In this document: positions 4,085-30,863 of the stretch, piece after piece
Position numbering within the stretch: the first letter of the stretch is position 1
Layout of the letters: each line of letters starts with the position of its first letter
Source of the DNA: a bacterium
GTDB lineage: Bacteria; UBP18; UBA7526
Direction of reading: 5' to 3'
Assembly (NCBI GenBank): GCA_030615855.1
Contig: JAUWYL010000015.1
Span: 1-31,322, forward strand
Length of the DNA stretch: 31,322 nucleotides
The notes under the pieces: model-generated
The model's input: only the letters and a program-made list of their open reading frames with translations
Told to the model about the DNA's origin: nothing
The model's database searches: none
Translations under genes and position numbers: made by a program

Positions 4085-4087
4085 TTA

Positions 4088-8431: not shown

Positions 8432-8477
8432 CTTATCTAATCTTCAAGGGTTAGGAGGGGATAGAGGAGGAATATTG

Positions 8478-8630
8478 ATGTATCGGAGTATGGGCGTATT
8501 GGGGTATCGGTGTATCGGAGTGTCGGTGTAATGGTGTAAGTGAATATTTTTCTTTTTTACTCCCACACTCCACTACTCCCCTACCCCGTTACTCCCTTAC
8601 CCATCCTCACCCGTCCTTACCCTTCTCCTC
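8478..8630. repeat. Strand-asymmetric intergenic repeat region: G/T-rich (TATCGGAGT/GGTGTAAGTG units), then A/T centre, then C/T-rich (ACTCC/TTACCC units)
   Basis: Between NfnA-like start and aminotransferase stop; the two halves are loosely reverse-complementary. Confidence 0.7.
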
Positions 8631-11044: not shown

Positions 11045-11056
11045 CTAATCTCCCTA

Positions 11057-11122
11057 ACACGGATTAGCACAGATTAGAAAAAACAGATTAGCACAGATTT
11101 AATCCGTGCCTATCCGTGTCTA
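11057..11122. repeat. CACGGAT/ATCCGTG-family inverted tandem array (abuts the DERA stop codon)
   Basis: 'ACACGGATTAGCACAGATTAG...CAGATTAGCACAGATT' then 'AATCCGTGCCTATCCGTGTCTAAT'. Confidence 0.75.
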
Positions 11123-12007
11123 ATAGCCGGCTCCAGCTGGGGTTCCCTTTATGATAGCCACGCTCGCTGAGGCCCCGATCCTGGTGGCTCCGGCCTTGAG
11201 CAAGGCTTGGACATCCTCAAAGGTTCTGACTCCTCCCGAGGCCTTTACCCCCATAATAGGACCAACTATGCGACGCATGAGGGCAACATCGGCTACCGTT
11301 GCCCCCCCTCCACTGAAACCGGTGGATGTTTTAACAAAGTCTGCTCCAGCTTCCTTTGCTATCTGACAGGCCTTAATCTTTTCCTCTTGAGTTAGTAAAG
11401 CAGTCTCCAGAATCACCTTAACAATCCTTCCATTGGCCGCATTGACTACCGCCTGAATATCCTTTTTCACCAGATCGTAATTCTTTGCTTTCAGGGCTCC
11501 GATGTTCATCACCATATCGATCTCATCCGCTCCATTGGCGATGGCATCCCTGGTCTCCATGGCCTTGGCCGTGGAGGTCGTGGCTCCTAAGGGAAAACCG
11601 ATTACCGTAGTGATCTTGACTGGGGTCCCTTTTAGTACCTTTGCTGCTAAGGGGACATAACTGGGATTGATGCAGACAGAGGCAAAGTTATACTTCTTTG
11701 CCTCCTCACATAACTGGGTGATCTTCTCTGGAGAGGCATCGGGCTTTAAATAGGTATGATCAATGGTATGGGCAATCTCTTCTTTTGGCGGCCTTGCTCC
11801 AATGGTAGCCCCTATCCTCTCTGCTCCAGCAGCAACTACTTTCTCCACCTCACTGGGACACTTAACAACGCATAATCCACAGGCAGTACATTCGCTATCC
11901 GTTGCCGGACAGATGGTCACTCCAGGAATAACTCCTGTCTCCTCTTCAGCAAGGCGCCGCATAACATTCCTGGTTATTCTATCTATTAGCTCATCGAACT
12001 CAGCCAT
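11120..12007 (-). CDS. deoC: Deoxyribose-phosphate aldolase (DERA) with ~75 aa N-terminal extension (encapsulation-peptide-like helix + 4Fe-4S-type Cys motif)
   Basis: 295 aa; catalytic-Lys region '[16 protein letters not shown]', DERA core from ~aa 80 ('IDHTYLKP'); N-term '[19 protein letters not shown]' amphipathic helix; '[12 protein letters not shown]' = CxxCxxCxxxCP; SD GGAGGAAG. Confidence 0.85.
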
Positions 12008-12035
12008 TCTTCCTCCACGTGATTTCCAAGCATAT

Positions 12036-12096
12036 CGTTTACCGTTAACCCGCTTCGCTGTTTACCGTTTACCGTAAACCGTTAACCGTAAACCTG
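12036..12096. repeat. ACCGT-family tandem heptamers (TTTACCG/TAAACCG/TTAACCG)
   Basis: 'CGTTTACCGTTAACCCGCTTCGCTGTTTACCGTTTACCGTAAACCGTTAACCGTAAACC' between BMV1 stop and DERA start. Confidence 0.75.
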
Positions 12097-12099
12097 CTT

Positions 12100-12369
12100 T
12101 CATTCCATGTCGATGCGGTCTATTACTCCTGCGATAAAAGTCCTCACGGGAATATCTGGATTGCCGAATGCCTGACGGGCAGAGTTTCCCTCATCGATGA
12201 CCAGGACCGTCTCCCCAAAGCCGGCATAACCCTGATCCACGGCCATCAGGGAATTCCCCTCAGGCTTTAGTTTTTTATTCAGAGGTTGAACAATTAAGAG
12301 CCTATTCCCTTCCAGGTGCTTATTCTTCCTGGTAGCTACCACTACCCCGGTTACTTTAGCTATTAACAT
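12100..12369 (-). CDS. BMC vertex (pentamer) protein, EutN/CcmL/PduN family
   Basis: 89 aa; 'MLIAKVTGVVVATRK...LLIVQP' typical PF03319 N-terminus; SD AAGGGAG. Confidence 0.85.
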   Translation of the reverse strand: MLIAKVTGVVVATRKNKHLEGNRLLIVQPLNKKLKPEGNSLMAVDQGYAGFGETVLVIDEGNSARQAFGNPDIPVRTFIAGVIDRIDME

Positions 12370-12381
12370 TCTTCACTCCCT

Positions 12382-12669
12382 TCATTTAGATCGCGGTTTG
12401 GTTGGAGTAACCAAGGACTTGTGAATCCATCCCTCTCTCTTATCAGGTAGTCTAACCTTATACCAATTCCTGCTTTCCTCTAAGACCTTTAGGCGGTCAC
12501 CCTGTTTAAGAGTAATAACTATCTTACTCTCTATTGTAGCCGCACTTCTTATGTTGGCCTGCCCTACTTTGATCCAGACCTTGGCCGGGATTTTCTTAGT
12601 AGTTACCGCAGCACAGCCAGCCAATAGGATAACAACTACTAAGCCCAGTATTAAAAGTCTCCGTCCCAT
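12382..12669 (-). CDS. Bacterial SH3-domain lipoprotein
   Basis: Start taken at ATG (12667-12669) with SD GGGGGTG; signal peptide + lipobox 'LLAGC'; SH3b-like 'AKVWIKVGQANIRS...GDRLKVLEESRNWYKV'; ORF-track start 12687 is TTG. Confidence 0.55.
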   Translation of the reverse strand: MGRRLLILGLVVVILLAGCAAVTTKKIPAKVWIKVGQANIRSAATIESKIVITLKQGDRLKVLEESRNWYKVRLPDKREGWIHKSLVTPTKPRSK

Positions 12670-12701
12670 TCTATCACCCCCTTTCAATCATTCTTCTAGG
12701 C

Positions 12702-12830
12702 TGTCACGAAACTCGTTCCAGCCTATGATTACACAGATTCTAAAAAGATTACGCAGATTTTACCGACGAGTATTTGATCTGTGTAATCTAAATTTTAATG
12801 GGTGTAATAAAGGACGACACTTTTGTGACG
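12702..12830. repeat. Nested inverted repeats: 12-bp perfect IR GATTACACAGAT(12727-12738)/ATCTGTGTAATC(12777-12788) with third direct copy GATTACGCAGAT; outer imperfect IR TGTCACGAAA/TTTTGTGACG
   Basis: Read directly; lies upstream of the SH3-lipoprotein gene and downstream of BMV2. Confidence 0.75.
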
Positions 12831-12836
12831 CCCTAA

Positions 12837-13115
12837 TCATTCTTCCTCATGGATATCTATGGAGTCCACGATGCCCACGATACCTGCATCAACCGGAGCA
12901 ACCTCAGGTAATAGAGGTAAGGAAGCTTCCCGGGCCTCAACGTAGAAGACATAGTCCCCGATCCCCGCCTGAACAGTATCTACAGCCACCTGGGGCTTGT
13001 CTATGGGCTTTTTATCCTCCCAAGTTAAGGGCTGAATGATTAAAAGTTTTGCCCCTTCCAATGTCTCATACTTCTGAGAGGCAACTACTGTTCCAATGAC
13101 TTTAGCAAGCTTCAT
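12837..13115 (-). CDS. BMC vertex (pentamer) protein, EutN/CcmL family (paralog 2)
   Basis: Start taken at internal ATG (13113-13115) preceded by SD GGAAGGAG, giving 'MKLAKVIGTVVASQK...'; the ORF-track N-terminal extension begins on GTG. Confidence 0.8.
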   Translation of the reverse strand: MKLAKVIGTVVASQKYETLEGAKLLIIQPLTWEDKKPIDKPQVAVDTVQAGIGDYVFYVEAREASLPLLPEVAPVDAGIVGIVDSIDIHEEE

Positions 13116-13164
13116 AGGCTCCTTCCAGTCGCGCTTCAAGCCATACACTTAGGAAGCGGTGAAT

Positions 13165-13235
13165 CGGAGATCCTCTTTCTCCGCATCCTTATATCCCTCT
13201 ATTACCGTTTCTCCCTTTCTCCGTCTCTCCGTTTC
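13165..13235. repeat. Hairpin CGGAGA-tcctctt-TCTCCG plus tandem CCGT(T/C)TCTC units
   Basis: Read directly, between RpiB stop and BMV2 start. Confidence 0.6.
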
Positions 13236-13255
13236 AACATTCCTACAGCCTGTGG

Positions 13256-13789
13256 CTATTTCAAGTATTTTTTTTCTATTCCCATTATCTTATCTACTCT
13301 TCGGGCATGACGACCACCAGCGAACTTAGTCTCCAGCCATACCTTAACCATCTCCTTTGCTAAAGCAACTCCAATGGTCTGGCCCCCGAGACATAGAATA
13401 TTGGCATCATCATGCTCACTGGCCATCTTTGCAGTAAAGGTGTCATAGGCCAAAGCCGCCCTTATTCCGGGAACCTTATTACAGGCGATGCAGGAACCCA
13501 TTCCCGCACCATCGATCATTATTCCTTTAGAACATTCTCCCTTTACAACCTCTGAAGCAACGAGATGGGCATAGTCCGGATAGTCGCAGGACTCCGGGCT
13601 ATAGGGACCACAGTCCTTCACCTTATATCCCAATTCATTGAGATATTTTCTCAGTTCCTCCTTTAAGGGGAACCCTCCGTGATCGCTCCCCATGGCAATT
13701 TTCTTCTCATCCTTAGGAGGAGCTTCAGAGGATTTTAACTGAGCAGCAACTTCTTTTACGATCTTCTTTATGATATCCTCAGAAACCAT
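13256..13789 (-). CDS. rpiB: Ribose-5-phosphate isomerase B (RpiB/LacAB family) with N-terminal encapsulation-peptide-like extension
   Basis: 177 aa; 'IAMGSDHGGFPLKEEL', 'GMGSCIACNKVPGIRAA'; ~30 aa N-terminal extension 'MVSEDIIKKIVKEVAAQL' (amphipathic). Confidence 0.85.
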   Translation of the reverse strand: MVSEDIIKKIVKEVAAQLKSSEAPPKDEKKIAMGSDHGGFPLKEELRKYLNELGYKVKDCGPYSPESCDYPDYAHLVASEVVKGECSKGIMIDGAGMGSCIACNKVPGIRAALAYDTFTAKMASEHDDANILCLGGQTIGVALAKEMVKVWLETKFAGGRHARRVDKIMGIEKKYLK

Positions 13790-13794
13790 TCTTC

Positions 13795-14028
13795 TTACTC
13801 TTTTATAATTTTGATTCTGAATTCCAGGGCCCTATCCCGGGCAAAAGGGGTGATGATGGCATCCCTGGGAACCCTTAATTCCTTGCATCCCTGCTTTGCC
13901 GCCTTAAGCATCACCTCTTCATTAACGAGCATCCTCTTCGTCCCACGGGGAGAAGTTACCTTCCCCTTTCCAGCCAACTCCTTCTGGACCTCTTCAGTAA
14001 CGATTTGAATCAACTTCTCTTTATCCAT
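13795..14028 (-). CDS. Small hypothetical protein with N-terminal encapsulation-peptide-like helix (BMC-associated, no recognisable catalytic domain)
   Basis: ~77 aa from ATG 14026-14028 (SD GGAG 8 nt upstream; ORF-track GTG start at 14037); 'MDKEKLIQIVTEEVQKEL' amphipathic helix then Gly/Lys linker and ~45 aa C-terminal module '...KELRVPRDAIITPFARDRALEFRIKII'. Confidence 0.5.
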   Translation of the reverse strand: MDKEKLIQIVTEEVQKELAGKGKVTSPRGTKRMLVNEEVMLKAAKQGCKELRVPRDAIITPFARDRALEFRIKIIKE

Positions 14029-14050
14029 TTCGCTCACTCCGTTCGCTCAA

Positions 14051-14151
14051 TACGCTGATTACCGCTGATATACTGCACTGATTGCCGCTGATTATCTGCG
14101 GTCATCTGCGTCTTTTTTCCATATCTCTCCTCGCCATCTGCGTCTATCTGC
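14051..14151. repeat. Tandem GCTGAT(T/A) x4 followed by ATCTGCG x4 around a T-rich centre
   Basis: Read directly, between PduT stop and the small EP-protein start. Confidence 0.7.
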
Positions 14152-14153
14152 GT

Positions 14154-14705
14154 TTATAAGAGGGCTTTACGTAGTGCCTCATGGGGCTTGGGGATGACGG
14201 TTCGATTGACTAATAGTCCTTCCTCTTCTATCTCTCTGCAACCAGCATCTATGGCAGCCTTGACCGCATCTACTTCTCCTGTCAAGGTAACGAAGCCCTT
14301 TCCGGCCAATCCCTTTGCTAAACGAATTTCGATGAGTTCTATCTTGGCCGCCTTTACTGCGGCATCTGCAGCCAGGATAATGGCTGATACAGAGAAGGTC
14401 TCTATTACACCAATTGCTTTTAGCTCCTTAATAACGCTCGTTCCCATTATGGCCGGAAAGACATCGGAGTGGACATTGGGAATGACGAAGCTATCCATCA
14501 CTGTTTCTTTACCCACTTCCTTTCCTTTATCGATTGAGGACCGGACACTGGCCACATCTCCCATTACCAAGACGATATATTTACCGGGGCAGATGGAGAA
14601 GGATTCGATGAGGTCCACTGCCGCTACCTTCATCATGGCATCACAGACCTCAAACCCCCGGGCAACACTATTCAATTCCACCATACCGATGGCATTTTTA
14701 ACCAT
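14154..14705 (-). CDS. pduT: PduT-like tandem-domain BMC shell protein (BMC-T, putative Fe-S pore)
   Basis: 183 aa; two PF00936 domains; strong resemblance to PduT as I recall it ('AIGMVELNSVARG...DAMMK', 'SICPGKY', 'AIGVIETFSVSA...AADAAVKAA', 'GLLVNRTVIPKPHEAL'); conserved pore Cys in 'CPGK'. Confidence 0.85.
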   Translation of the reverse strand: MVKNAIGMVELNSVARGFEVCDAMMKVAAVDLIESFSICPGKYIVLVMGDVASVRSSIDKGKEVGKETVMDSFVIPNVHSDVFPAIMGTSVIKELKAIGVIETFSVSAIILAADAAVKAAKIELIEIRLAKGLAGKGFVTLTGEVDAVKAAIDAGCREIEEEGLLVNRTVIPKPHEALRKALL

Positions 14706-14728
14706 TTCATCCTCGTTTCACTCGGATA

Positions 14729-14816
14729 GTTTACAGTTTATCCGCTCGGCCTTTGGCCTCGCTGTTTACTGTTAACCGTCTTTTACCGTAAACCGTACAC
14801 CGTTAACCGTAAACCC
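14729..14816. repeat. ACCGT-family array containing dispersed block TTTACCGTAAACCGTACACCGTTAACCGTAAACC
   Basis: Upstream of PduT start; 23-27 nt identical to copies at ~25787-25815 and ~26901-26925. Confidence 0.8.
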
Positions 14817-14840
14817 TATCTTGCTGGTTACTGCTCACTG

Positions 14841-16163
14841 TTATGCTTCGATAGTAATAGAGTCTCCGATATCGGTTATCTTTCCCTCTATTGAGGCATG
14901 AATCCTTGCTCCTAAGGCTCCTCTGGGAATATCGGCAATCAAATCTCCCACTTTTACTTTCTCATTCAACTTTACGGTCGGGATCGATTTTGCTCCCACA
15001 TGCTGAGAGAGAGAAATCCTGACAAGGTTCGTCCGATATTCTCTCTTCTCCAGAGGAGCATCAAGATTATATTCCTCTATTCCGATCCTTGAGATGATCC
15101 TCTCTGTAGGAACTTTGCGATACTCTATCATGGAATGGGCTTCCTCCGGAGCCTCCTTATGGGGATTCTTAACCTTGGCCTCTGTCAGTTCCTTTTTAAT
15201 CTCCTGATTCACCCTGAGTGGTGATAGTCCAAAAGGACAAGCATATAGATTACATAAACCGCATTCTGAACAGAGGAAAGCAGCGGTGATGTCATTCAAT
15301 TCCTTTCTCATTTCATACCCCACATGCCTCATTATCTTATGGGGTTTTAAGGAATGGCCGATTAAGTACCGGGGACAGAGTTCAGTGCAGTCGGTGCACT
15401 GCATACAGAGCATGGTCTTCCTGAGGATTTTTCTCATCTCCAGGGTCTTGTTCATAATGACCTGATGGTCTTTGGGCAGGACAATCAATCCCGTGGTGGT
15501 CTTCATTACTGGGGAATCCAAATCTTCAATCAGTTTCCCCATCATAGGTCCGCCATCCAAGACAGAAAAATCATTTATCTTTGGTTCAGCTAATCTTATT
15601 ACCTCTCCCACACTCATCCCCACGGGAACCTTCACTGACTTCGGTCCCTTCACCGCCCCGGATATTGTGAGATAGCGATGGGTGACCGGCCTTCTTTCTA
15701 TAGTATCTGCAACATTGATGAGGGTTCCCACATTATCCACCACCACTCCCACTTGTAGGGGAATTCCTCCCTCAGGGACGATCCTCTTCAATACCTCATA
15801 GACCAGTATCTGCTCATCACCCGCAGGATAGAAGTCACCAAGGATAAATAGTTCGATGTGGGATGGAGGATGTGGGATGTGGGATGTTAAAGCAGCGATG
15901 GCCTCTTTATATTTTTCTTTTAAAGCAATAAATCCCTTCTTGGCTCCCGTGGCCTCCATTACTAGCTTTAAACCCTTGATCACTTTGTTCGCTTGGGTAG
16001 CCATTAATTGCTGATCGATGCGCAAGAGAGGCTCACACTCCGCACCATTGGCGATGACATACTCTACCTTGGTCTCTAACTTCACATGGGTGGGGAAGCC
16101 CGCTCCCCCTGCTCCCACCACCCCAGCATCCCTTACTTTCTCAATAATCTCTTTCTTATTCAT
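14841..16163 (-). CDS. pduS: PduS/RnfC-like Fe-S flavoprotein (BMC-associated oxidoreductase)
   Basis: 440 aa; N-terminus 'VRDAGVVGAGGAGFPTHVKLE' as in PduS/RnfC; two ferredoxin motifs 'CMQCTDCTELCP' and 'CSECGLCNLYACP'; in-frame heptamer repeat (~15855-15886) encoding 'HIPHPPSHI'; my manual base count and the ORF track disagree by 1 nt at this start codon. Confidence 0.8.
   Translation of the reverse strand: MNKKEIIEKVRDAGVVGAGGAGFPTHVKLETKVEYVIANGAECEPLLRIDQQLMATQANKVIKGLKLVMEATGAKKGFIALKEKYKEAIAALTSHIPHPPSHIELFILGDFYPAGDEQILVYEVLKRIVPEGGIPLQVGVVVDNVGTLINVADTIERRPVTHRYLTISGAVKGPKSVKVPVGMSVGEVIRLAEPKINDFSVLDGGPMMGKLIEDLDSPVMKTTTGLIVLPKDHQVIMNKTLEMRKILRKTMLCMQCTDCTELCPRYLIGHSLKPHKIMRHVGYEMRKELNDITAAFLCSECGLCNLYACPFGLSPLRVNQEIKKELTEAKVKNPHKEAPEEAHSMIEYRKVPTERIISRIGIEEYNLDAPLEKREYRTNLVRISLSQHVGAKSIPTVKLNEKVKVGDLIADIPRGALGARIHASIEGKITDIGDSITIEA
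15855..15886. repeat. In-CDS tandem heptamer (GATGTGG)x4.5
   Basis: Encodes 'HIPHPPSHI' inside the PduS-like protein, in frame. Confidence 0.8.
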
Positions 16164-16224
16164 TCCGTCATTCCGTCATTCCGTCATTCCGTCAGTAAGT
16201 TAGACGGATAGACGGATTAGACGT
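16162..16224. repeat. (CATTCCGT)x4 tandem octamer followed by (GACGGATA)x2.5 near-reverse-complement units; includes the PduS start codon
   Basis: Read directly; on the mRNA strand gives ACGGAATG x4 immediately 5' of and including the ATG. Confidence 0.8.
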
Positions 16225-16249
16225 TTCCTTCAAAACTTAAAGTTTTTTA

Positions 16250-17680
16250 TTAGGCAATTCTAAAGTAATCCACCAATACGCATCTTAAGGGTCTAGTGAA
16301 GGTGCTGGCTTTGGTCAATCCTTCTCCAGTGGGGGTGGCGATGCTCATGGTGGCATATCCCTCTCCCTCGTACCCCAACCCGGCATAGGAAGGGGCATTC
16401 TTAACGAAGATGGAAACTTGAGCGGTCTTGGCCATCTTGGTCAGATTGGCAACATTTAAGGAATGCATGATGGCGGTATGCTTATTGGCCTGTTCAACTT
16501 CTACAGCAAAATTAATTGCCTCATCAACATCTTTTACCCTGACAAAAGGGATGACCGGCATGAGCTGCTCTGTCCAGACGAAAGCGTGGTTTCGGTCCAC
16601 TTCACAGAATAAGAGTCTGGTACTCTCTGGTACTTTTACTCCAATCTTGGAAGCGATTAAAGTGGCATCCCTACCAATATACTCCCTACTCACTTTGGGC
16701 TCTTTCCCTGGACCACCTGGTTCCAGTATGGCGGCCTTGGTTAACTTTTCAAACTCATCCTTCTTTAACTCATAGGTCCGGGGATCCTTGCGCAATAGTT
16801 CCAATAATCTATCAGCAATAGCTTCCACGGCGATGATCTCCTTCTCTGCGGTACACAAGACGCCATTGTCAAAACTGGCTCCCTTTATGATGGAGTCAGA
16901 GGCATGCTCTAAGTCTAAAGTCTCATCTATTACTACTGGAGGATTCCCTGGACCAGCAGCAATCACCTTCTTTCCGCAGGCCATGGCGGCTCTCACCACC
17001 CCTGGCCCACCAGTGACTAGGATGAGCTTTATCTTGGGATGCTTGAATAGTGTCTGGGCCTCTTCAATGGAGGGCTTGGCAGCAGTGGTCATCAGATTTG
17101 CTGGCCCACCTGCTTTTATAATCGCTTCATTAAGAATCTGAATGGATTTCAGGGATACCTTCTTGGCTGCCGGATGGGGGGCGAAGACCACACTATTCCC
17201 GGCAGCGATGATGGAGATGGCATTATTTATTATGGTAGAGGAAGGATTGGTAGAGGGAGTCACAGCACCTATTACTCCAAAGGGAGCCATCTCCACTAAG
17301 GTTAAACCATGGTCCCCAGTATAGGCTATGGGGTGTAGATCCTCTACTCCAGGGGTCTTCTGGGCAGATAATAAGTTCTTCTGGACCTTATCCTCCCACC
17401 TTCCCATCTTGGTCTCTTCCCAGGCCAATTTTGCTAAACTCTCTGCCTCCCGGATTGAGGCCTCCCTCATAGCCTCGATATATTTGCTCCTCTTCTCCAG
17501 ACTCTCGCGAAAGAGCTCCCTTTGGGCAATCCGTGCCGCCTCAATGGCTTCCTCCACATTAGGAAAGACCCCCAGGTCCCCAGCACCTGCCTTTACTTCA
17601 GGAGGTCTGGCCTCTTCTTTGGTCATCCTCTCTACTATTTCCTTAACAACTTCTCTTATCTTCTCTGGACTGATCTCCAT
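16250..17680 (-). CDS. CoA-acylating aldehyde dehydrogenase (EutE/PduP family) with N-terminal encapsulation peptide
   Basis: Catalytic Cys box 'FDNGVLCTAEKEII'; start taken at ATG (17678-17680; SD GAGG 6 nt upstream) giving 'MEISPEKIREVVKEIVERM'; ORF-track start 17707 is GTG inside the upstream repeat array. Confidence 0.85.
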   Translation of the reverse strand: MEISPEKIREVVKEIVERMTKEEARPPEVKAGAGDLGVFPNVEEAIEAARIAQRELFRESLEKRSKYIEAMREASIREAESLAKLAWEETKMGRWEDKVQKNLLSAQKTPGVEDLHPIAYTGDHGLTLVEMAPFGVIGAVTPSTNPSSTIINNAISIIAAGNSVVFAPHPAAKKVSLKSIQILNEAIIKAGGPANLMTTAAKPSIEEAQTLFKHPKIKLILVTGGPGVVRAAMACGKKVIAAGPGNPPVVIDETLDLEHASDSIIKGASFDNGVLCTAEKEIIAVEAIADRLLELLRKDPRTYELKKDEFEKLTKAAILEPGGPGKEPKVSREYIGRDATLIASKIGVKVPESTRLLFCEVDRNHAFVWTEQLMPVIPFVRVKDVDEAINFAVEVEQANKHTAIMHSLNVANLTKMAKTAQVSIFVKNAPSYAGLGYEGEGYATMSIATPTGEGLTKASTFTRPLRCVLVDYFRIA

Positions 17681-17703
17681 CTTCATCCTCACTTCGCTCC
17701 GGT

Positions 17704-17789
17704 GCACGGATAATCACGGATTTCATACGGATGAGCACAGATTAAATCCGTGCTAATCTGTATTATTATCAGTGCTAATCCGTGTCTAA
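17704..17789. repeat. Phased CAC(G/A)GAT x4 then ATC(C/T)GTG x4 array (same family as 21443-21523)
   Basis: Unit starts approximately 17704/17714/17725/17735 and 17747/17757/17770/17780 (~10 bp phasing); spans BMV3 stop to AldDH start. Confidence 0.8.
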
Positions 17790-18076
17790 GACTTTCTGAA
17801 TAAAACCTTACCTTCTACCTCAATGGTATCCACAATGGCCATGATCACCGCATCTGTGGGGGTATCCTTAGTCCTTACTGTCTGACGGGCAGAGGAGCCC
17901 TTGGCGATCAGGACCACCTCTCCGATTCCAGCTCCCACAGCATCGATGGCTACCAGAGGAGATCCCTCCTCTTTTCCTTCCATGCTTATGGGCTGAATCG
18001 CCAATAACTTACAACCCTCTATCTTCTCATCCTTCCTGGTAGCCACAACGGTACCAATCACCTTGGCAAATATCAT
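17786..18076 (-). CDS. BMC vertex (pentamer) protein, EutN/CcmL family (paralog 3)
   Basis: 96 aa; 'MIFAKVIGTVVATRK...LLAIQP'; strong SD AAGGAGGAG. Confidence 0.85.
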   Translation of the reverse strand: MIFAKVIGTVVATRKDEKIEGCKLLAIQPISMEGKEEGSPLVAIDAVGAGIGEVVLIAKGSSARQTVRTKDTPTDAVIMAIVDTIEVEGKVLFRKS

Positions 18077-18100
18077 CTGTCTCCTCCTTATAGATTAGAA

Positions 18101-18166
18101 GTTTACAGTAGCCAGTTAACAGTAACCAGTCTTCTACTGTAAACTGTTCGCTGGTTACTGGTTACT
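18101..18166. repeat. GGTTACTG-family element: GTTTACAGT...CAGTAACCAG then ACTGTAAAC...CTGGTTACTG (unit / reverse-complement unit, order preserved)
   Basis: Exact 9- and 10-nt reverse-complement pairs at ~30 nt offset; between AckA stop and BMV3 start. Confidence 0.75.
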
Positions 18167-19370
18167 TCTTTGTTTTGCTGATGACATCGTAGGTATCTCG
18201 AGCAATGACCAGTTCCTCGTTGGTTGGTATGCAATAGACTTTGACCTTTGAATTGGGAGCGCTTATCTCCCCCTCCTTCTTTATTGTCTTCTCGTTCCTC
18301 TCCTTATCGATAACCACCCCTAAAAATTCCAACCCAGCACAACTCAAGGCTCTTATTCTGGGAGCATTTTCGCCAATCCCGGCAGTGAAGACGATAGCAT
18401 CCACTCCTCCCATGACTCCGGCATAGGAAGTGATATACTTCCTAATGTGATAGGTGAAGATCTCTATGGCTAATCTTGCCCGGTCATTCCCCTTCTTCTC
18501 CTCTTCCAGGATATCATACATATCACTGCTCACTCCTGATAATCCCTGAAGACCAGAGTGGAAGTTAAGCATGGTATTTACCTCATTTATGGATAATCCT
18601 TCATTAGTCATGATATATAGAACGATGGCGGGATCGATGTCCCCACATCTGGTCCCCATGACTAAACCCTCTAGGGGGGTGAAGCCCATTGAGGTATCGA
18701 TGGATACCCCTCCCTTAATGGCAGCAATACTGACTCCATTCCCCAAGTGGCAGGTGATGACCTTTAAATCTGTCAAGGGCCTATCCATGAGATGGGCCAC
18801 TCTCTGGGAGACATAGAGGTGAGAAGTTCCATGGAAGCCGTATCTCCTTATCCCATATTTACGATACTGAGTGTAAGGCAATCCATAGATATAGGCATGG
18901 CGAGGCATGGTCTGATGGAAGGCAGTATCGAAGACCGCTACCTGGGGGATCCCGGGAAGGAGTTCCTCACAGGCCATGATTCCCCTCAGGTTATGAGGGT
19001 TATGTAGAGGAGCAAGTTCTATGCAATCCGCTATACCTTCTTTTACCTCCTCAGTAACCAGGACTGAAGTAGCAAATTTCTCTCCCCCATGGACTACTCG
19101 GTGACCGACAGCAACAATCTCTTTCTTATCCTTAATGACTCCCGTTTTAGGATGGAGAAGAGCATCTAGGGCTAACTTTATCGCCTCTCTATGATCCAAG
19201 ATCTCTGCTGCCGTCTTTACCGGCTTCTTCTTCCCAACCTGATAGGTTGAGAGCGCTCCACTCATTCCGATTCTCTCCACAATCCCCTTGGCTAAAACAG
19301 ACTCCTTTTCAATCTCAATCAGTTCATACTTCACAGAAGAACTTCCACAATTTAGTACTAATATTTTCAC
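18162..19370 (-). CDS. ackA: Acetate kinase
   Basis: 402 aa; 'KILVLNCGSSSVKYEL' N-terminus and ASKHA-fold motifs; GTG start with SD GGGGGT. Confidence 0.9.
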   Translation of the reverse strand: MKILVLNCGSSSVKYELIEIEKESVLAKGIVERIGMSGALSTYQVGKKKPVKTAAEILDHREAIKLALDALLHPKTGVIKDKKEIVAVGHRVVHGGEKFATSVLVTEEVKEGIADCIELAPLHNPHNLRGIMACEELLPGIPQVAVFDTAFHQTMPRHAYIYGLPYTQYRKYGIRRYGFHGTSHLYVSQRVAHLMDRPLTDLKVITCHLGNGVSIAAIKGGVSIDTSMGFTPLEGLVMGTRCGDIDPAIVLYIMTNEGLSINEVNTMLNFHSGLQGLSGVSSDMYDILEEEKKGNDRARLAIEIFTYHIRKYITSYAGVMGGVDAIVFTAGIGENAPRIRALSCAGLEFLGVVIDKERNEKTIKKEGEISAPNSKVKVYCIPTNEELVIARDTYDVISKTKK

Positions 19371-19403
19371 TTTTACCCCCTTTAAGGTTGGTATTAGTTA
19401 GCA

Positions 19404-19465
19404 GTGTACAGTTTACAGCAAAAAACTGGTTACTGTTCGCTGGTTACTGATTACTCTTTATCTTA
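19404..19465. repeat. GGTTACTG-family element (shares CTGTTCGCTGGTTACTG(G/A)TTAC with 18136-18166)
   Basis: Between PduL stop and AckA start. Confidence 0.75.
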
Positions 19466-19470
19466 ACTTT

Positions 19471-20136
19471 TTATGATATTTCTACTAGGTCTCCTTGAGA
19501 TAGGCCAGCGGCATTGGCCTCATCAATATCTATATGGAAATCTAACCTATGGGTTGGTCCCGACCTTATCATGACGTTATCGAATATTAATGCTCTCTTT
19601 CCCGGTACCTTTACCTTTACTGTATCCCCGTCCTTCACCCCAAAGCCCCTTGCTTCATCTGGAGACAAGTGGATATGGCGCTGGGCAATAATCGCCCCCG
19701 CTCTTAAGTTAATCTCTCCCTTGGGGCCGATAATCTTTATCCCGCTCGAGCCCTTTATATCTCCCGAAATCCTCACTGGAGGTTTGATTCCCAAGATGTA
19801 GCTATCTGTTCTTGAGACCTCGACCTGGGTCTCTTTTCTTACTGGGGCCAGGATGCGCACCTTTTCCATCCTTCCCTTTGGTCCTACTAAGGCGACTACT
19901 TCATTTGCTGCAAACTGCCCTGGCTGAGAGAGGTCTCTCAGTTTTGTCAGTTTCGCTCCCTTTCCGAATAGGGTTTCTAAATCCTTTGTAGTAAGATGTA
20001 CATGTCTATTAGAGAGACCGACTGGGATCTTTCCAGGAGGTGCTTTGGGCGCGGCACTCAGCTTGCTTAAGACCTCCTCCACTATGGAACGAACTAACTT
20101 CTCATCGTACACTTTCTTGTCCTCGATAGATGTCAA
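19471..20136 (-). CDS. pduL: Phosphate acyltransferase PduL (PTAC) with N-terminal encapsulation-peptide-like helix
   Basis: Duplicated RHxH motifs ('SNRHVHLT', 'AQRHIHLS'), 'SQPGQFAA', 'HIDIDEANAAGL'; ORF-track start is TTG; a GTG at ~20109-20111 with SD GAGGA would give 'M-YDEKLVRSIVEEVLSKL' (EP helix), so the true start is uncertain. Confidence 0.8.
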   Translation of the reverse strand: MTSIEDKKVYDEKLVRSIVEEVLSKLSAAPKAPPGKIPVGLSNRHVHLTTKDLETLFGKGAKLTKLRDLSQPGQFAANEVVALVGPKGRMEKVRILAPVRKETQVEVSRTDSYILGIKPPVRISGDIKGSSGIKIIGPKGEINLRAGAIIAQRHIHLSPDEARGFGVKDGDTVKVKVPGKRALIFDNVMIRSGPTHRLDFHIDIDEANAAGLSQGDLVEIS

Positions 20137-20153
20137 TAAAATACAGTATAATA

Positions 20154-20213
20154 GGTGGATTGGTTGGATTAGTTGGATTTAAAATCCACCTAATTTCCTA
20201 ATCCAACTAATTT
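20154..20213. repeat. GGATTAGTTGG-family element: GGTGGAT...AGTTGGATT then ATCCACC...AATCCAACT (order-preserved reverse-complement pairs)
   Basis: Between TPI stop and PduL start; related copy at ~30706-30740. Confidence 0.75.
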
Positions 20214-20222
20214 ACTCGGCGG

Positions 20223-20978
20223 CTATTTTTTATACTTAATGATCTGGGCAAAGGATTTAGCATCGAGGCTCGCTCCCCCCACTAAGGCGCCATCGATGTC
20301 CTCCTCCCTCATTAAATCAGAGATATTCTCTGGCTTGACGCTTCCTCCATATTGGATTCTAACCTTAGCGGCAGTAACCTCATCATAGAGTTCGTTTAAA
20401 AGTCCTCTAATGAAGGAGTGAACCTCTTGTGCCTGATCTGGGGTGGCGGTCTTTCCGGTTCCAATGGCCCATACCGGCTCATAGGCAATGACTATCTTCA
20501 GTATCTCTTCCCGGGATAGGCCTTCCAGTCCCCGGGTGATATGTTCTCTCACCACCCCTTCGGTCACTCCCCTCTCCCTCTCCTCTAACCTTTCTCCCAC
20601 ACACATTATAGGTGTAAGGCTAAACTTTAGAGCCGTCTTTACCTTCCTATTCACTGATTGATTCGTTTCAGCGAAGAACTGCCTCCTCTCCGAGTGACCA
20701 ATGATGACGTATCTGCAGCCCACACCAGTGAGCATCCCTGGTGAAACCTCTCCCGTATAGGCCCCCTTCTCCTCCCAGTAGACATCCTGAGCACTGAGAA
20801 AAATGTTCGTCCCTCGAATGGCCTTGCCCACCGCAAAGAGAGAAGTAAAAGGAGGACAGACTACAATGTCAAGATCGTTGACCTTGGCGACCTCGGACTT
20901 TAATTTAGTCACTAAGTCCAGGGACTGGTCGATGGTCTTATTCATCTTCCAGTTCCCGGCAATTATCGGCCGGCGCAT
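20223..20978 (-). CDS. tpiA: Triosephosphate isomerase
   Basis: Start taken at ATG 20976-20978 (SD AGAGGAGGAG) giving 'MRRPIIAGNWKMNKT'; 'AYEPVWAIGTGKTAT', 'GGASL'; the ORF-track N-terminal extension runs into the repeat array. Confidence 0.9.
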   Translation of the reverse strand: MRRPIIAGNWKMNKTIDQSLDLVTKLKSEVAKVNDLDIVVCPPFTSLFAVGKAIRGTNIFLSAQDVYWEEKGAYTGEVSPGMLTGVGCRYVIIGHSERRQFFAETNQSVNRKVKTALKFSLTPIMCVGERLEERERGVTEGVVREHITRGLEGLSREEILKIVIAYEPVWAIGTGKTATPDQAQEVHSFIRGLLNELYDEVTAAKVRIQYGGSVKPENISDLMREEDIDGALVGGASLDAKSFAQIIKYKK

Positions 20979-20994
20979 AAACTCCTCCTCTAAA

Positions 20995-21131
20995 CACAGA
21001 TTCACACAGATAAGAGACAGATTCACACAGATCACAGATATTTAATAGCATCCGAATTCCAAAAAATTCTAATATCGAATTTTATAATCTGTGATCTGTG
21101 GCCATCTGTAAACAATCTGTGATGATCTGTG
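20995..21131. repeat. Large symmetric array: CACAGAT x5 (~10 bp phased), then 46-bp A/T-rich centre with GAATT repeats, then ATCTGTG x5
   Basis: rc(CACAGAT)=ATCTGTG exactly; spacer lengths are nearly mirrored (3,4,3,0 vs 0,3,4,2); between BMC-H stop and TPI start. Confidence 0.85.
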
Positions 21132-21422: not shown

Positions 21423-21442
21423 TTTCTTCACCTCCTCTAATA

Positions 21443-21523
21443 CACGGATAATCACAGATTCTTTACGGATGGTCACGGATCAAATCCGTGCTAATCCGTG
21501 TTGTTATCCGTGCTAATCCGTGT
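21443..21523. repeat. Phased (C/T)AC(G/A)GAT x4 then ATCCGTG x4 array upstream of the BMC-H gene
   Basis: Unit starts approximately 21443/21453/21463/21473 and 21484/21494/21506/21516; between DGC stop and BMC-H start. Confidence 0.85.
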
Positions 21524-23317
21524 CTATTTACTTTTAAAGAGGCAGACCTTATTTCTTCCTTCTCTTTTAGCGCGATATAAAGATTGGTCTGCCTGGCCGA
21601 TTAGTACCTCCTTACGCATACCCTTCTTATAACCGGCCACCCCAATACTCATCGTAATCTTGACTCTCTTCTTCTTTCCTTTTAGAAAATCAAAGCCCTG
21701 GACCTTCTTCCGCAGGCGTTCTGCCAAGAGACAGGCTCCCTTAGCATCCGTCTCGGGTAGGATAAGGGCGAATTCCTCTCCTCCGTAGCGGGCAGCGATA
21801 TCCGCTCCCCTTATAGCTTGCTTTAAGAGACGGGCGATATTCACTAAAACCGTATCCCCCGCTGGATGGCCATAGGTATCGTTAAATCTTTTGAAGTGAT
21901 CAATATCTAACATAAGCAAGGATAATGGAGTCTCATAACGTTTGGCCTTCCCCATCTCCTGCTCCAGGTAATTCTGAAAGAAGGTATGGGCATAGAGACC
22001 GGTCAATCCATCGTGAATCGCCTGCTCATATAGCATAGCATTCTGGATGGCTATCGCAGCATGGCTTGCCAGGGTAGATAGGAGCTCCTCGTCCCGGCGA
22101 ATGAACGGCTGGCGGGAGACCTTATTGGAGAGGGTAATCACTCCCACCCCCTCTCCCTTAGCCACCAGGGGAAGAGCGAGTAAAGTCTCTGTCCTATGTA
22201 ATTTCTTCTCTGTCTTTAGAGTCTTATAGCGTCGATCCCTTAAGGTATCATTGATTACCATGAGTTTCTTCTTCTCAAAGACGCTACCGGCAATCCCTTC
22301 CCCTATCTTTAGCCTCAGGTGTTTCCTGGCCTCCTCACTTATCCCTGTACCATAAGCGATATAGAGCCTCTTTTTCTTCTCGTGCCAGAGCATGAGGGAT
22401 CCCTTCTCCACCTGAGCCACCTCCATGAATAATCCTACGATGAGCCTCAAAAGTTCTTCCCTCTCCAGGTTGGAACTTATCTTTGTCGAGAGTCTTTGAA
22501 GCATCTGAAGATCCAGGACCCTCTGGTCAAGCTCCTCCTTTGCTCTGGCTAAGAGAGTGCTCTTCTCCTCAAGCGATCTCCAGCTCTGAGAGAGCCTCTT
22601 CCCCATCTGGTTAAATACCTCTCCCAATTCCCCCACCTCATCTCGAGAGGTGATCCTCACCCTGGCTCCCAGATCTCCCTTACCAATTTTCTTGGCAGCT
22701 TGAACTAACCTCTTTATCGGTCGGGTAATGCTGGCTGCCAGGAATAAGGAGATGACGATCCCTAGGATGAGCAGGCCAATGGTCAGAAGAAAGATGCGAT
22801 CTCGAATCTCAGCGATCCTTGCTTTTAAGAGGAGAGAGGAGAATCCCACCCTTACCAGGCCGATCCTTCTTTTTCCAAGAAGAATAGGAACTGCGACATC
22901 GTATACTCCCTCTTCTGTAATCTGTGAGAGGGTGGTCCTTGCTCCCTGGGCCTTGAGGCTCAAGTCATCACTCAAGGTCTTGCCCACCAGGCTCTTATTC
23001 GTGTGGGCCATGACCTCTCCAATATCATTCAAAATGATGACATAATCGATATCCTCACCCTTCTTGCCTATTCCCTCCACTATCTGGGCCAAGGTGATGT
23101 AATCATTGGATAGGATGGCCGTGGTGGAGGTGGTGGCCAGAGCATTGGTAATGTCCTTGGCCCTCTTGATCATCTGGTCAGTGGCCGTTCCCTCCTCCCT
23201 TTTGAGAGTGATACCAGCCACTAAGGACATGATGATCACGATGATCATAATCACAAATCCAGCAATCTTTCCTGCTAAACTAACTTTCATCTGTTTAGAA
23301 GTATCCCGGGCTGACAA
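21524..23317 (-). CDS. Membrane sensor diguanylate cyclase (TM - extracytoplasmic sensor - TM - HAMP - GAF - GGDEF)
   Basis: 597 aa; two hydrophobic segments flanking a ~150 aa sensor region, HAMP-like region, GAF-like region, GGDEF with 'RYGGEEFALIL'; TTG start with SD GGGAGG (alternative ATG at 23288-23290). Confidence 0.8.
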   Translation of the reverse strand: MSARDTSKQMKVSLAGKIAGFVIMIIVIIMSLVAGITLKREEGTATDQMIKRAKDITNALATTSTTAILSNDYITLAQIVEGIGKKGEDIDYVIILNDIGEVMAHTNKSLVGKTLSDDLSLKAQGARTTLSQITEEGVYDVAVPILLGKRRIGLVRVGFSSLLLKARIAEIRDRIFLLTIGLLILGIVISLFLAASITRPIKRLVQAAKKIGKGDLGARVRITSRDEVGELGEVFNQMGKRLSQSWRSLEEKSTLLARAKEELDQRVLDLQMLQRLSTKISSNLEREELLRLIVGLFMEVAQVEKGSLMLWHEKKKRLYIAYGTGISEEARKHLRLKIGEGIAGSVFEKKKLMVINDTLRDRRYKTLKTEKKLHRTETLLALPLVAKGEGVGVITLSNKVSRQPFIRRDEELLSTLASHAAIAIQNAMLYEQAIHDGLTGLYAHTFFQNYLEQEMGKAKRYETPLSLLMLDIDHFKRFNDTYGHPAGDTVLVNIARLLKQAIRGADIAARYGGEEFALILPETDAKGACLLAERLRKKVQGFDFLKGKKKRVKITMSIGVAGYKKGMRKEVLIGQADQSLYRAKREGRNKVCLFKSK

Positions 23318-24536: not shown

Positions 24537-24554
24537 CCTTTACCTCCCTTTCTT

Positions 24555-24620
24555 TATTCGTGTCAATTCGTGTTCTACTTCTTTCGTCTACCCTTTATAG
24601 TTCGCGTTGATTCGTGTTCT
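24555..24620. repeat. ATTCGTGT(TC) tandem/dispersed units spanning the 3' end of the small Lys-rich gene and the intergenic spacer
   Basis: Five units read directly; partly coding (encodes '...EHESTRT...'). Confidence 0.7.
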
Positions 24621-25021
24621 TTAAATACTAAGGTAGGCCAGATCTTTTCTAAGACACCCTTCTCCAGCACCAGAATCTTCTTTATGTCCTCTTTCTTTAT
24701 CTCCACGCTCTGGGGACGTCTCACTACCTCTGGCTTCTCCAAGACAATTCTCTTCCCTTTTTTAGACTTCACGGTTCCTACTACTTCACAGCCCGGGGTC
24801 CTAATGAGTACTTTCTCCCCCCTCTTTAGTTCCCCTATCTTTTTCTCTTTCACCATACTGGGCAGGCACATAGAGATTATTCCGGGATAGAGAGGGACCT
24901 GCTTATGGGTCTCCCAGATCTCTTTCAATACCTCAACCACCAGGGCTGGGTTCTTATACTTCTGGATGAGATTTATCATCTCTTTCTTTAGATTGGGATA
25001 ATCCGATTCCTGAAAGGTCAT
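24575..25021 (-). CDS. Hypothetical Lys-rich small protein (translationally coupled to upstream P-loop kinase)
   Basis: 148 aa; SD GAGGAGGGAG; ATG overlaps upstream stop (ATGA); C-terminal codons lie within an ATTCGTGT repeat array; no recognisable domain. Confidence 0.5.
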   Translation of the reverse strand: MTFQESDYPNLKKEMINLIQKYKNPALVVEVLKEIWETHKQVPLYPGIISMCLPSMVKEKKIGELKRGEKVLIRTPGCEVVGTVKSKKGKRIVLEKPEVVRRPQSVEIKKEDIKKILVLEKGVLEKIWPTLVFKEHESTRTIKGRRKK

Positions 25022-25677: not shown

Positions 25678-25778
25678 CAACCCTCGCTTCGTTCGGGAGT
25701 TTATAGTTGAGCGGCGCGTTTTACTTGCCCCGCTGGTGAATAACTGTTATTCAATTTACCCGTTCCCCCGATTTATCG

Positions 25779-25815
25779 GGGTCGCTGTTTACCGTAAACC
25801 GTACACCGTTAACCT
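25779..25815. repeat. Dispersed ACCGT-family block GTTTACCGTAAACCGTACACCGTTAACC preceded by hairpin CCCCGA-ttta-TCGGGG
   Basis: 27-nt identity with ~14783-14809. Confidence 0.8.
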
Positions 25816-25821
25816 TGCCCT

Positions 25822-26799: not shown

Positions 26800-26818
26800 T
26801 TTTCTCACTCCGTTCGAG

Positions 26819-26925
26819 GGTTTACTGTTGACCGTTTACGGTAAAAAAAACCGCCTCTCGTTTTCACTCGAGACTGGGCGATCCTGAATGAAATGAAGGA
26901 CCGTACACCGTTAACCGTAAACCTT
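26819..26925. repeat. ACCGT-family element: GTTTACTGTTGACCGTTTACGGT...(A)8...GACCGTACACCGTTAACCGTAAACC
   Basis: 23-nt identity with ~14794-14816; upstream of the TIM-barrel gene. Confidence 0.75.
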
Positions 26926-30675: not shown

Positions 30676-30705
30676 TCTACACCTCGCTTACGCTTGGAAT
30701 AATTA

Positions 30706-30832
30706 AGGAAATTAGTTGGATTGGGTGGATTAGTTCAACCTTGCCCACCTACGAGGTGGGACAGGTTATACGTATTCTCATATTTTTTTGTCAACTTGTA
30801 TCCTTGTCAACTTCTGGTTACTGGTTACTGTT
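30706..30832. repeat. Intergenic region with GGATTAGTTGG-family copy (30706-30740), perfect hairpin CCCACCT-acg-AGGTGGG (30744-30760), TTGTCAAC direct repeat and a CTGGTTACTGGTTACTGTTC copy (30813-30832)
   Basis: Read directly; matches the families at 20154-20213 and 18136-18166. Confidence 0.7.
30765..30810 (-). promoter_or_regulatory. Candidate sigma70-like promoter for the DHH phosphoesterase gene (two TTGACA boxes on the minus strand, TATAAC -10)
   Basis: Minus strand reads AAGTTGACAAGGATACAAGTTGACA-(A)7TATGAGAATACG-TATAAC; spacer ~18-19 nt, so weak. Confidence 0.25.
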
Positions 30833-30863
30833 CAATTATAAAACTGTTGGACCATATATTGAT

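Follow-up and report, generated by a model that had tools for sequence, protein, structure and literature searches.

Palindromic arrays of short repeat units at the gene junctions of a UBP18 microcompartment operon: probable members of dispersed repeat families

The operon and its junction elements

The stretch of DNA analysed here (the window) comprises 31,322 nucleotides of contig JAUWYL010000015.1 from an uncultured bacterium of the UBP18 lineage (UBA7526; GenBank assembly GCA_030615855.1) and carries a long sugar-phosphate bacterial microcompartment (BMC) operon, at nearly every gene junction of which lies a mosaic of short repeat units and their reverse complements. All window genes are on the minus strand, and the gene names assigned in an earlier note, made from the sequence alone, were backed by Pfam matches. 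Downstream from a GGDEF sensor gene the order is BMC-H, TPI, PduL (PTAC), AckA, EutN, aldehyde dehydrogenase (AldDH), a PduS-like Nuo51/RnfC protein, tandem-BMC PduT, a small open reading frame (ORF), RpiB, EutN, an SH3 protein, EutN, DeoC (DERA) and SHMT (glyA). In the junction names used below, the EutN genes appear in this order as BMV3, BMV2 and BMV1 and the small ORF as EP. Several predicted ORF starts were over-extended into the spacers, the real starts sitting after GGAGG or GGAGTGA sites.

When the coding strand was read through from the BMC-H gene to glyA, elements of 60–150 nt were found in 13 of the 15 junctions, the two element-free gaps measuring 5 and 12 nt. The elements are made of tandem 7–10 nt units, usually followed by reverse-complement units (Table 1). 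All 11 elements listed in the earlier note are present on the coding (minus) strand, between a stop codon and the next Shine-Dalgarno (SD) site or start; its statement that nearly every junction is occupied held, and its list proved incomplete, missing 21441–21523 and 12688–12836. Seven of the 13 elements start 0–1 nt past the stop codon. Arrays called in the junctions by Tandem Repeats Finder (TRF) have a period of 7, 8 or 10, and 24 of the 33 non-redundant TRF arrays fall within the intergenic 7.6% of the window (~10-fold enrichment, binomial p = 2.9e-20).

The unit/reverse-complement-unit build was assessed from exact 6-mers with direct and reverse-complement copies, using 500 shuffles per element. 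None of the 500 shuffles reached the observed value in seven of the 11 listed elements, nor in the additional element at 21441–21523; DERA/glyA and AckA/BMV3 were borderline (6–9 of 500), and the build claimed for PduT/EP and PduL/AckA failed this strict test. At PduT/EP, four CGCAGAT units face four ATCAGCG units, a near-complement in which every pair of units shares a central A.A mismatch, and the arms of PduL/AckA consist of CAGTAAC and CTGTAAA units. RpiB/BMV2 is mostly a direct ACGGAGA array, its 0/500 resting on three direct copies and one reverse-complement copy. Instead of the 'about four' unit families proposed previously, at least seven were found: CACRGAT; CAGTAAC(CAG); TTWACGG; TTAGKTGGATT; GACGGAAT; CGCAGAT/ATCAGCG; and ACGGAGA. 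A further type is the G-rich 8-mer at 8432–8630. The junction repeat mosaics are real and statistically solid.

An independent Logan contig (L107, 5.4 kb) is 100% identical to window 14787–20179, which excludes an assembly artefact as the source of the elements. Each end of this contig lies within a junction element, one of them in TPI/PduL, which fits multi-copy or palindromic repeats.

Two families recur throughout what follows, F1 (at PduL/AckA and AckA/BMV3) and F2 (TTTACGG/TTAACGG heptamers). The right end of their elements is regularly followed, just before the start codon, by the sequence YCC-GA-N7-9-GRGG (e.g. ATCCGAGTGAAACGAGGAT, CTCCCGAACGAAGTGAGGG), seen at many junctions (window 14706–14735 and 25681–25700; L059, L065, L067, L072). 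The small hairpin of this sequence would pair part of the SD, and at occupied junctions the sequence stands in place of the native SD region of the empty site.

Turnover and dispersed copies

Four syntenic relatives (L001–L004), labelled 'bacterium' or UBP18 metagenome-assembled genomes (MAGs), were found by a genome scan with aldehyde dehydrogenase. They share 91–94% protein identity and 81–87% overall nucleotide identity with the window, and gene order is kept in all four. The comparison of unit turnover with architectural conservation, suggested in the earlier note, showed that the tandem and inverted unit build persists while unit sequence turns over. Control specific to each junction is not supported, since the same junction may hold another family, an inverted copy, an altered or reduced number of units, a nested insert or nothing at all, and a single junction can have a spacer as short as 2 nt or as long as 259 nt, depending on the genome.

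For instance, the CACRGAT element found at BMV3/AldDH of the window is present as its exact reverse complement in L001, whereas L003 has F2 and L004 has F1 at this junction. F2 at BMV1/DERA is replaced by F1 in L003, and the spacers of L002 and L004 (18–32 nt) have no element. PduL/AckA holds a full F1 element in the window and L003 and a single unit per arm in L004; AckA/BMV3 holds F1 in the window, L001 and L004 and has no spacer in L003, where an overlapping ATGA joins the genes. The PduS/PduT spacer is 141 nt long in the window against 28 nt in L004, and EP/RpiB, just 11 nt in the window, contains elements in L003 and L004. The inverted copy at the orthologous BMV3/AldDH junction (window 17705–17784 versus L001:10003-9924) is 100% identical over 80 nt, between flanks that are ~86% identical (85.8%) and differ by ~10–14% right up to the element borders. 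The element may have flipped in place under extreme conservation, or it may have been replaced recently. Separately, in L004, a UBA7526 MAG, a scaffold gap (run of N, 11435–11615) lies exactly at the AldDH/PduS junction, as would be expected if a repeat element there had broken the assembly.

The same families also lie outside the operon. Within the window, operon families recur at 24537–24574, 25681–25821, 26809–26924 and 30676–30863, and other arrays are found at 6084–6204 and 8432–8630. An F1 18-mer, CAGTAACCAGCGAACAGT, retrieved 41 metagenome loci, ~30 of which are true F1 copies with a common 30-nt left end and a CTGTAAACTGGTTACTG right end. Genes adjoining these copies are housekeeping genes (IF3, L20, L11, NusG, FtsZ, GroES, ATP synthase subunits and others), at odds with a control layer tied to the BMC operon. 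Placement was not random with respect to junctions, in agreement with the earlier note, as the metagenome copies too sit between a stop codon and the SD of the next gene, with some between divergent genes.

Collectively, dispersed copies were found for six families or modules. Window 14706–14840 matches L003:13525-13633 at PduT/EP (95% over 109 nt), L003:9930-10017 at BMV3/AldDH (94% over 88 nt) and also L076; window 26809–26924 matches L001:2373-2434 at the non-orthologous TPI/PduL junction (98% over 62 nt); and window 30676–30863 matches L002:3636-3692 at PduT/EP (91% over 57 nt). These non-orthologous copies, at 91–98% identity, are more alike than the orthologous genes (81–87%), which indicates dispersal. 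Elements are also nested: F2 lies within F1 arms (window 14706–14840, L076), unrelated arrays occupy the centre of F1 copies, and a ~50-nt hairpin module interrupts F2 arms at window 26809–26924 and at TPI/PduL of L001. Terminal inverted repeats are present in F1 (AGTTTACAG...CTGTAAACT) and in the CACRGAT family (ACACGGAT...ATCCGTGT). Element turnover, non-orthologous copies and nesting are together the behaviour of dispersed, mobile or recombining repeats, not of conserved cis-regulators.

The label 'genome-specific', given to the mosaics in the earlier note, was not supported either. Unit/reverse-complement-unit hairpins were detected at the BMV/AldDH junction in MAGs of Ignavibacteria (z -7.2) and Elusimicrobia (z -2.9), and arrays of CACGGATT (2–4 units, ~10-nt period, mostly direct only) occur at gene junctions of unrelated IMG/VR contigs. 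Three such contigs (L102, L103, L106; 58–59% GC) contain 20–29 copies per 11–14 kb against ~1.5 expected (10–20-fold); L106 has MuB-like AAA_22 and GemA genes, and L103 a terminase. BLAST of an 83-nt element against plasmid and phage collections gave no match, and crude TRF-density and 6-mer 'mosaic' metrics over 58 loci were too noisy in high-GC genomes to rank lineages. BMC junctions of Ignavibacteria, Elusimicrobia and Caldiserica MAGs were also seen to carry heptamer arrays (L005:9917-10000, L005:3524-3791, L006:9911-10000, L051:1343-1392 and 2692-2743), with inverted arms in the first two groups (GCAAATA/GCTATTT; AAAGGT/AACCTT). Long CAGTGAA/CAGTAAC (CAGTRAM) arrays followed by reverse-complement arrays stand at L062:270-420 and L075:1540-1680, in otherwise unrelated-looking contigs, one of which has GC-rich flanks.

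A second, local kind of change is visible in the arrays. Unit number differs between orthologous elements, and all four units of the PduT/EP right arm share the same non-complementary base; the units of an arm are thus made uniform even where pairing suffers. In the PduS coding sequence (compared between L003:11538-12857, L004:11616-12935 and L001:11663-12868), the window, L003 and L002 contain (CATCCCA)x4, and L004 and L001 contain (CCAGGAT)x4 at the same place and length, changing the peptide from SHIPHPPSHIE to ARIQDPGSRIQ. All four copies of the heptamer unit have thus been replaced in concert within a conserved gene. Such dynamics fit slippage-prone 5–11-nt repeats (long simple sequence repeats, LSSR), of which heptamers are reported in excess in many bacteria (Mrazek 2007, as summarised in PMC4679880). 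Another perfect coding array, (CCGTTCA)x4.6, was observed at window 881–912 (ORF 44–1519), its unit resembling the reverse complement of F2 intergenic units.

Table 1. Repeat elements and arrays of the window (z, folding z-score; MFE, minimum free energy; n/500, shuffles reaching the observed 6-mer value)
Feature	Position	Strand	Composition and borders	Fold and shuffle test	Copies and relatives
Upstream of BMC-H, CACRGAT family	21441..21523	-	4 x CACGGAT at 10-12 nt spacing, then 4 x ATCYGTR; starts 0-1 nt after GGDEF-gene TAG, ends 19 nt before ATG at 21421	MFE -38.4, z -8.35	90% over 83 nt to L070; 85% to window 17705-17785
BMC-H/TPI	20990..21131	-	5 x CACAGAT, ~40-nt AT-rich centre, 5 x ATCTGTG; all 'A-type' in both arms	z -6.97; 5 direct + 5 reverse-complement copies, 0/500	L003: orthologous arms 94-96% identical, ~160-nt extra insert in centre
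TPI/PduL	20137..20222	-	TTAGTTGGATT and TTAGGTGGATT, then AATCCAACTAA, AATCCAACC, AATCCACCTA	z -3.6; 0/500	Sampled copies: short relative at 30676-30863 only; relatives hold other families here
PduL/AckA, F1	19371..19470	-	CAGTAACCAG-CGAA-CAGTAACCAG ... CTGTAAACTGTACACTG	Weak sense fold, z -0.6; antisense -2.9	
AckA/BMV3, F1	18077..18161	-	AckA stop TAA inside first unit GTAACCAG	z -3.5	
BMV3/AldDH, CACRGAT family	17703..17785	-	4 + 4 units	z -5.6	
AldDH/PduS	16164..16249	-	ATCCGTCT x2-3, then TGACGGAA x4 (period 8); PduS ATG in last unit; TRF TCATTCCG x4.4, 100% matches	z -4.3; 0/500	Unrelated families or 55-nt spacer in all relatives
Array in PduS coding sequence	15855..15887	-	CATCCCA x4		
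PduS/PduT composite	14706..14840	-	F1 arms around F2 (TTTACGG/TTAACGG) element with GGCC hairpin	z -2.8	
PduT/EP	14038..14153	-	CGCAGAT x4, then ATCAGCG x4; no exact reverse complement	z -1.9	Non-orthologous sites L002:35-93, L003:17816-17875
RpiB/BMV2	13149..13255	-	Direct ACGGAGA-type array (period 8) + small downstream hairpin	z -0.8	Spacer absent in L002-L004
BMV2/SH3	12688..12836	-	Three hairpins, central one on GATTACACAGAT / AATCTGYGTAATC units	z -7.1	Spacer 6 nt in L002, 37 nt in L003
BMV1/DERA, F2	12008..12099	-	TTTACGG/TTAACGG/TAAACGG heptamers, self-complementary via GTTTAC/GTAAAC	z -2.2; 0/500	L076, L066, L003, window 14782-14815
DERA/glyA, CACRGAT family	11045..11119	-	Starts 0-1 nt after TAG	z -5.3; 9/500	
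Palindrome outside operon	8432..8630	-	199 nt, ~8-nt G-rich units (GGGTAAGG-like) + complements	z -4.3	Orthologous spacer 57 nt in L003, 32 nt in L004
Outside operon	25681..25821	-	F2 heptamers fused to multi-hairpin module		
Outside operon	26809..26924	-	F2 arms around inserted ~50-nt hairpin module		
Intergenic region	30676..30863	-	CAGTAACCAG x2, AAGTTGACAA x2, AATCCAMC units		

Folding of the elements

Sense-strand folding z-scores against dinucleotide shuffles ranged from -8.4 to -0.6, with seven elements at or below -4 and a weak result for three to four; sense and antisense folding energies revealed no consistent preference. In two elements (18101–18166 and 20154–20213), the order A, B, rcA, rcB described in the earlier note was confirmed. 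The accompanying statement that they cannot fold as simple hairpins was not: similarity among the units, together with a third unit in the right arm, lets nested hairpins form (AckA/BMV3 -23.7 kcal/mol, z -3.9; TPI/PduL -16.3 kcal/mol, z -3.1) without any need for interleaved stems or a pseudoknot. All 17 compact F1 copies from other loci fold as one segmented hairpin, made of a 10-bp CAGTAACCAG/CTGGTTACTG stem, a 3-nt internal loop and a 5-bp ACAGT/ACTGT stem.

In CACRGAT units, positions 1–3 and 5–7 are almost invariant and position 4 varies (G 55%, A 39%, T 4%), a variation that is uncompensated in the partner arm of mixed elements. RNAalifold detected no compensatory pairs among CACRGAT copies, and complementarity is confined to the units and does not extend to the spacers separating them. 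Rfam gave no match at the gathering score and one chance match at E<=1 (E = 0.47). Intrinsic terminators (GC-rich hairpin plus U-tract) numbered nine sites against 10.6 expected, only one of which lies in an element; the promoter scan showed no enrichment, the search for tRNA or tmRNA found none, and comparison of absolute MFE with coding windows was uninformative owing to a composition effect. Complementarity of the units to the 3' end of 16S rRNA (E. coli-type sequence; only ~2-fold over coding sequence) was repeat-inflated and was dropped.

With no strand preference, an uncompensated position 4, non-complementary spacers and no Rfam, terminator or promoter signal, there is no sign of a sequence-specific structured RNA. 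The elements have the appearance of DNA-level palindromes, which would still form hairpins in transcripts. A ~100-nt multi-hairpin module attached to F2 heptamers was observed at junctions that differ between genomes, lying outside the operon in the window (25681–25821) and at TPI/PduL in L001 (2346–2539) and L003 (7479–7622). It has no Rfam match; by eye, its small hairpins display apparent compensatory changes (GAATAACAGTTATTC vs GAATAATAATTATTC; CCCCGA..TCGGGG vs TCCCGAC..GTCGGGA).

Interpretation and comparison with known repeats

On balance, we think it probable that the junction mosaics are genome-wide, fast-changing and likely mobile families of palindromic repeats, comparable to repetitive extragenic palindromes (REP), bacterial interspersed mosaic elements (BIME), REP doublets forming hairpins (REPIN) and miniature inverted-repeat transposable elements (MITE), and that they do not constitute an operon-specific control layer. 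Each arm is a tandem array of 7–10 nt units (period 7, 8 or 10–11) facing a reverse-complement array, and pairing of the arms gives a 'segmented' hairpin, in which stems of 5–10 bp alternate with small symmetric internal loops. Dispersal and turnover are evident from the comparisons above, and two processes are envisaged behind them. Elements would be copied into new intergenic sites, possibly with the help of a Y1/REP-associated tyrosine transposase (RAYT)-like enzyme acting in trans or of some other transposase, or else through recombination of similar spacers. Slippage and gene conversion, acting locally, would alter unit number and homogenise units within an arm. If gaps between stop codon and SD are the sole tolerated sites in this gene-dense genome, a long sugar-phosphate BMC operon would gain an element at almost every junction. 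In the polycistronic mRNA, the elements would form hairpins starting 0–1 nt after the stop codon. By analogy with REP elements, such hairpins would probably shield the mRNA upstream of them from 3' exonucleases and make the translation of adjacent cistrons independent. We suppose such RNA effects to be a side effect or weakly selected, rather than the work of a conserved junction-specific regulator.

Several observations weigh against this interpretation. The orientation of F1 between co-directional genes is biased (20 with transcription, 3 against), which hints at selection on the transcript or strand-specific insertion and not at pure neutrality. Five elements (8432–8630, 12688–12836, 13149–13255, 16164–16249 and 20137–20222) have no dispersed copy in the sample and may have arisen wholly in place. 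Neither a RAYT/IS200-like nor any other transposase was detected in ~150 kb, a small sample covering the Pfam matches of window genes, the L001 insert described below and 44 ORFs beside F1 copies, with the 25 commonest Pfam families listed. Element borders displayed no consistent target-site duplication, and no clean empty/filled pair was found, empty and filled junctions not being collinear. The neutral chance of the 80-nt identity at BMV3/AldDH is 0.858^80, or ~5e-6, so that a selfish insert undergoing simple decay does not account for it. Finally, the recurrence of CACGGATT in unrelated phage contigs suggests a recognised motif.

A motif of this kind is central to the view that the elements are binding-site arrays for a trans-acting protein recognising DNA or RNA, with the unit (e.g. 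CAC-N-GAT), repeated in direct and inverted orientation, as motif and the hairpin as by-product. We regard this as unlikely, if worth keeping in mind. It would account for the near-invariant CACRGAT positions 1–3 and 5–7 around a free and uncompensated position 4, for the non-complementary spacers, and for direct-only arrays of the same unit and ~10-nt period at junctions of unrelated Mu-like/phage contigs with 58–59% GC; an inverted yet 100% conserved copy suits a site in duplex DNA, and a similar proposal has been made for TAACTGA repeats (PMC4679880). However, at least seven unrelated units with periods of 7, 8 and 10–11 nt would call for several factors, no candidate protein was identified, and presence or absence varies freely between close relatives.

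A broader version is just as tentative: the unit arrays may be a widespread 'junction punctuation' read by conserved nucleic-acid-binding or recombination factors and shared horizontally across distant phyla and Mu-like phages. Its units may include CAC-N-GAT at a 10-nt period and CAGT-NNN / NNN-ACTG heptamers related to TAACTGA and to short tandemly repeated repetitive (STRR) sequences, and inverted arrays may be DNA sites that can flip yet are strictly conserved, of which the inverted copy with 100% identity would be one example. Because of that copy, the phage CACGGATT arrays and the hairpins of other phyla, we leave room for units as horizontally spread binding or recombination motifs.

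We judge it distinctly improbable that the mosaics are purely local simple-sequence repeats, generated by in-place slippage (5–11 nt, heptamers favoured) with an inverted arm formed by template switching and no transposition. Such a process would suit the unit-number variation between orthologues, homogenisation within arms, the arrays in PduS and ORF 44–1519, the five elements lacking copies, and the heptamer excess mentioned above (Mrazek 2007, as summarised in PMC4679880). What it cannot yield are stretches of 60–110 nt with non-repetitive centres and flanks that are 91–98% identical at non-orthologous junctions and ~30 further loci, and it leaves the nested composite elements unexplained.

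Operon-specific post-transcriptional control, in which each element is a dedicated processing, stability or pseudoknot signal setting BMC expression ratios, appears very unlikely. The exact position between stop codon and SD at 13 of 15 junctions, the good folding of many elements and the F1 orientation bias would be expected of it; the same families nevertheless stand at housekeeping operons and elsewhere in the window, neither occupancy nor family is conserved at the junctions of relatives with the same operon, one element is inverted, a pseudoknot is unnecessary, and compensatory covariation is lacking. Integron-like attC sites, with the operon genes as a cassette array, were rejected as having next to no probability: an imperfect 60–140 nt palindrome does follow each ORF and all ORFs share one orientation, but gene order is conserved in the four relatives while palindromes change, some elements are located between divergent genes, arms consist of unit arrays in tandem, and there is neither an integrase among the Pfam matches nor an R''/R' GTTRRRY core site.

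Returning to the dispersed-repeat interpretation, REP and REPIN are extragenic hairpin-forming repeats that also occur within polycistronic operons (PMC3116915; PMC12306157), where intercistronic REP elements stabilise upstream mRNA and stall ribosomes near stop codons (PMC12306157). The elements described here resemble the RAYT-mobilised REP/BIME/REPIN of E. coli and Pseudomonas in being short, extragenic, multi-copy, hairpin-forming and often placed between cistrons, with several families per genome, clusters and nesting, no target-site duplication and polymorphism between close relatives; BIMEs are likewise mosaics of units in alternating orientation (PMC3116915; PMC12306157). In contrast, REP units are 20–40 nt palindromes with a GTAG or CGTC tag, conserved at one end of the unit (PMC3733652), whereas the arrays here are of non-palindromic 7–10 nt units. 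No GTAG/CGTC tag was found at the element ends, which read ACACGGAT directly after TAG, AGTTTACAG or AGTAACCAG. The elements are extragenic and multi-copy, and are imperfect palindromes with a predicted hairpin (z down to -8.4, both strands); with no tag, and no RAYT seen in the small sample, REP membership is not established.

MITEs, pneumococcal BOX and Neisseria Correia elements have terminal inverted repeats, measure 60–200 nt, are intergenic, consist of variable modules and are co-transcribed with their neighbours. Terminal inverted repeats, a similar size, intergenic sites, a modular interior of variable number and predicted co-transcription are shared by the elements here, unlike target-site duplications and a parent insertion sequence, neither of which was seen, and the modules here are just 7–10 nt long. 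MITE membership fails on target-site duplication.

Cyanobacterial STRR/heptamer arrays and the TAACTGA repeats of Beggiatoaceae are intergenic heptamers (PMC4679880; bioRxiv 10.1101/2022.06.06.494920). They have in common with the junction elements tandem 7-nt units in 2–6 copies, an overwhelmingly intergenic location just upstream of starts, and a patchy distribution across phyla. The TRF period is 7 for F1 and F2, as in those intergenic heptamers, and 8 or 10 for the other families; immediately before the SD, the right arm of F1 (TTAACTG/TAAACTG) matches Beggiatoa TAACTGA at 6/7 positions. Beggiatoa sets are direct repeats of one unit (169 direct sets vs 1 inverted; PMC4679880), whereas the elements here have many unit families, an inverted arm as a rule and 60–140 nt wholes that are dispersed. 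LSSR of 5–11 nt are similar in heptamer excess, copy-number change by slippage and occasional in-frame arrays in genes; the summary in PMC4679880 of Mrazek (2007) contains no description of them as paired inverted arrays or dispersed composites. To judge by these comparisons, the elements may best be described as REP/MITE-like modular palindromes whose arms are short unit arrays, a putative new variant.

For annotation, the elements should not be read as BMC-specific regulators, and they account for the places where contigs break or scaffolds have gaps in the MAGs of this lineage. They offer a clear case of an uncultured UBP18-like lineage in which operon junctions are saturated by several modular palindrome families with measurable turnover between species, and a comparative system for REP-like spread, homogenisation of unit arrays and tuning of expression by hairpins in long operons. 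The units recurring in other phyla and phage contigs provide a tie to whatever generates or reads the intergenic heptamer or decamer repeats of cyanobacteria and Beggiatoaceae.

Two features of gene content were observed in addition. In L001, five tricarboxylic acid (TCA)-cycle genes (fumarase alpha and beta, malate dehydrogenase, citrate synthase and isocitrate dehydrogenase) are inserted between PduL and AckA within the BMC operon (3203–8347); this ~5-kb insert was considered as a transposon and rejected on its content. Just upstream of the GGDEF sensor gene, a Clp1-type P-loop protein (PF16575, polynucleotide-kinase-like) is encoded beside two ORFs without Pfam matches (window 23295–24536 with 24575–25680), and together they may constitute an RNA-end-processing module.

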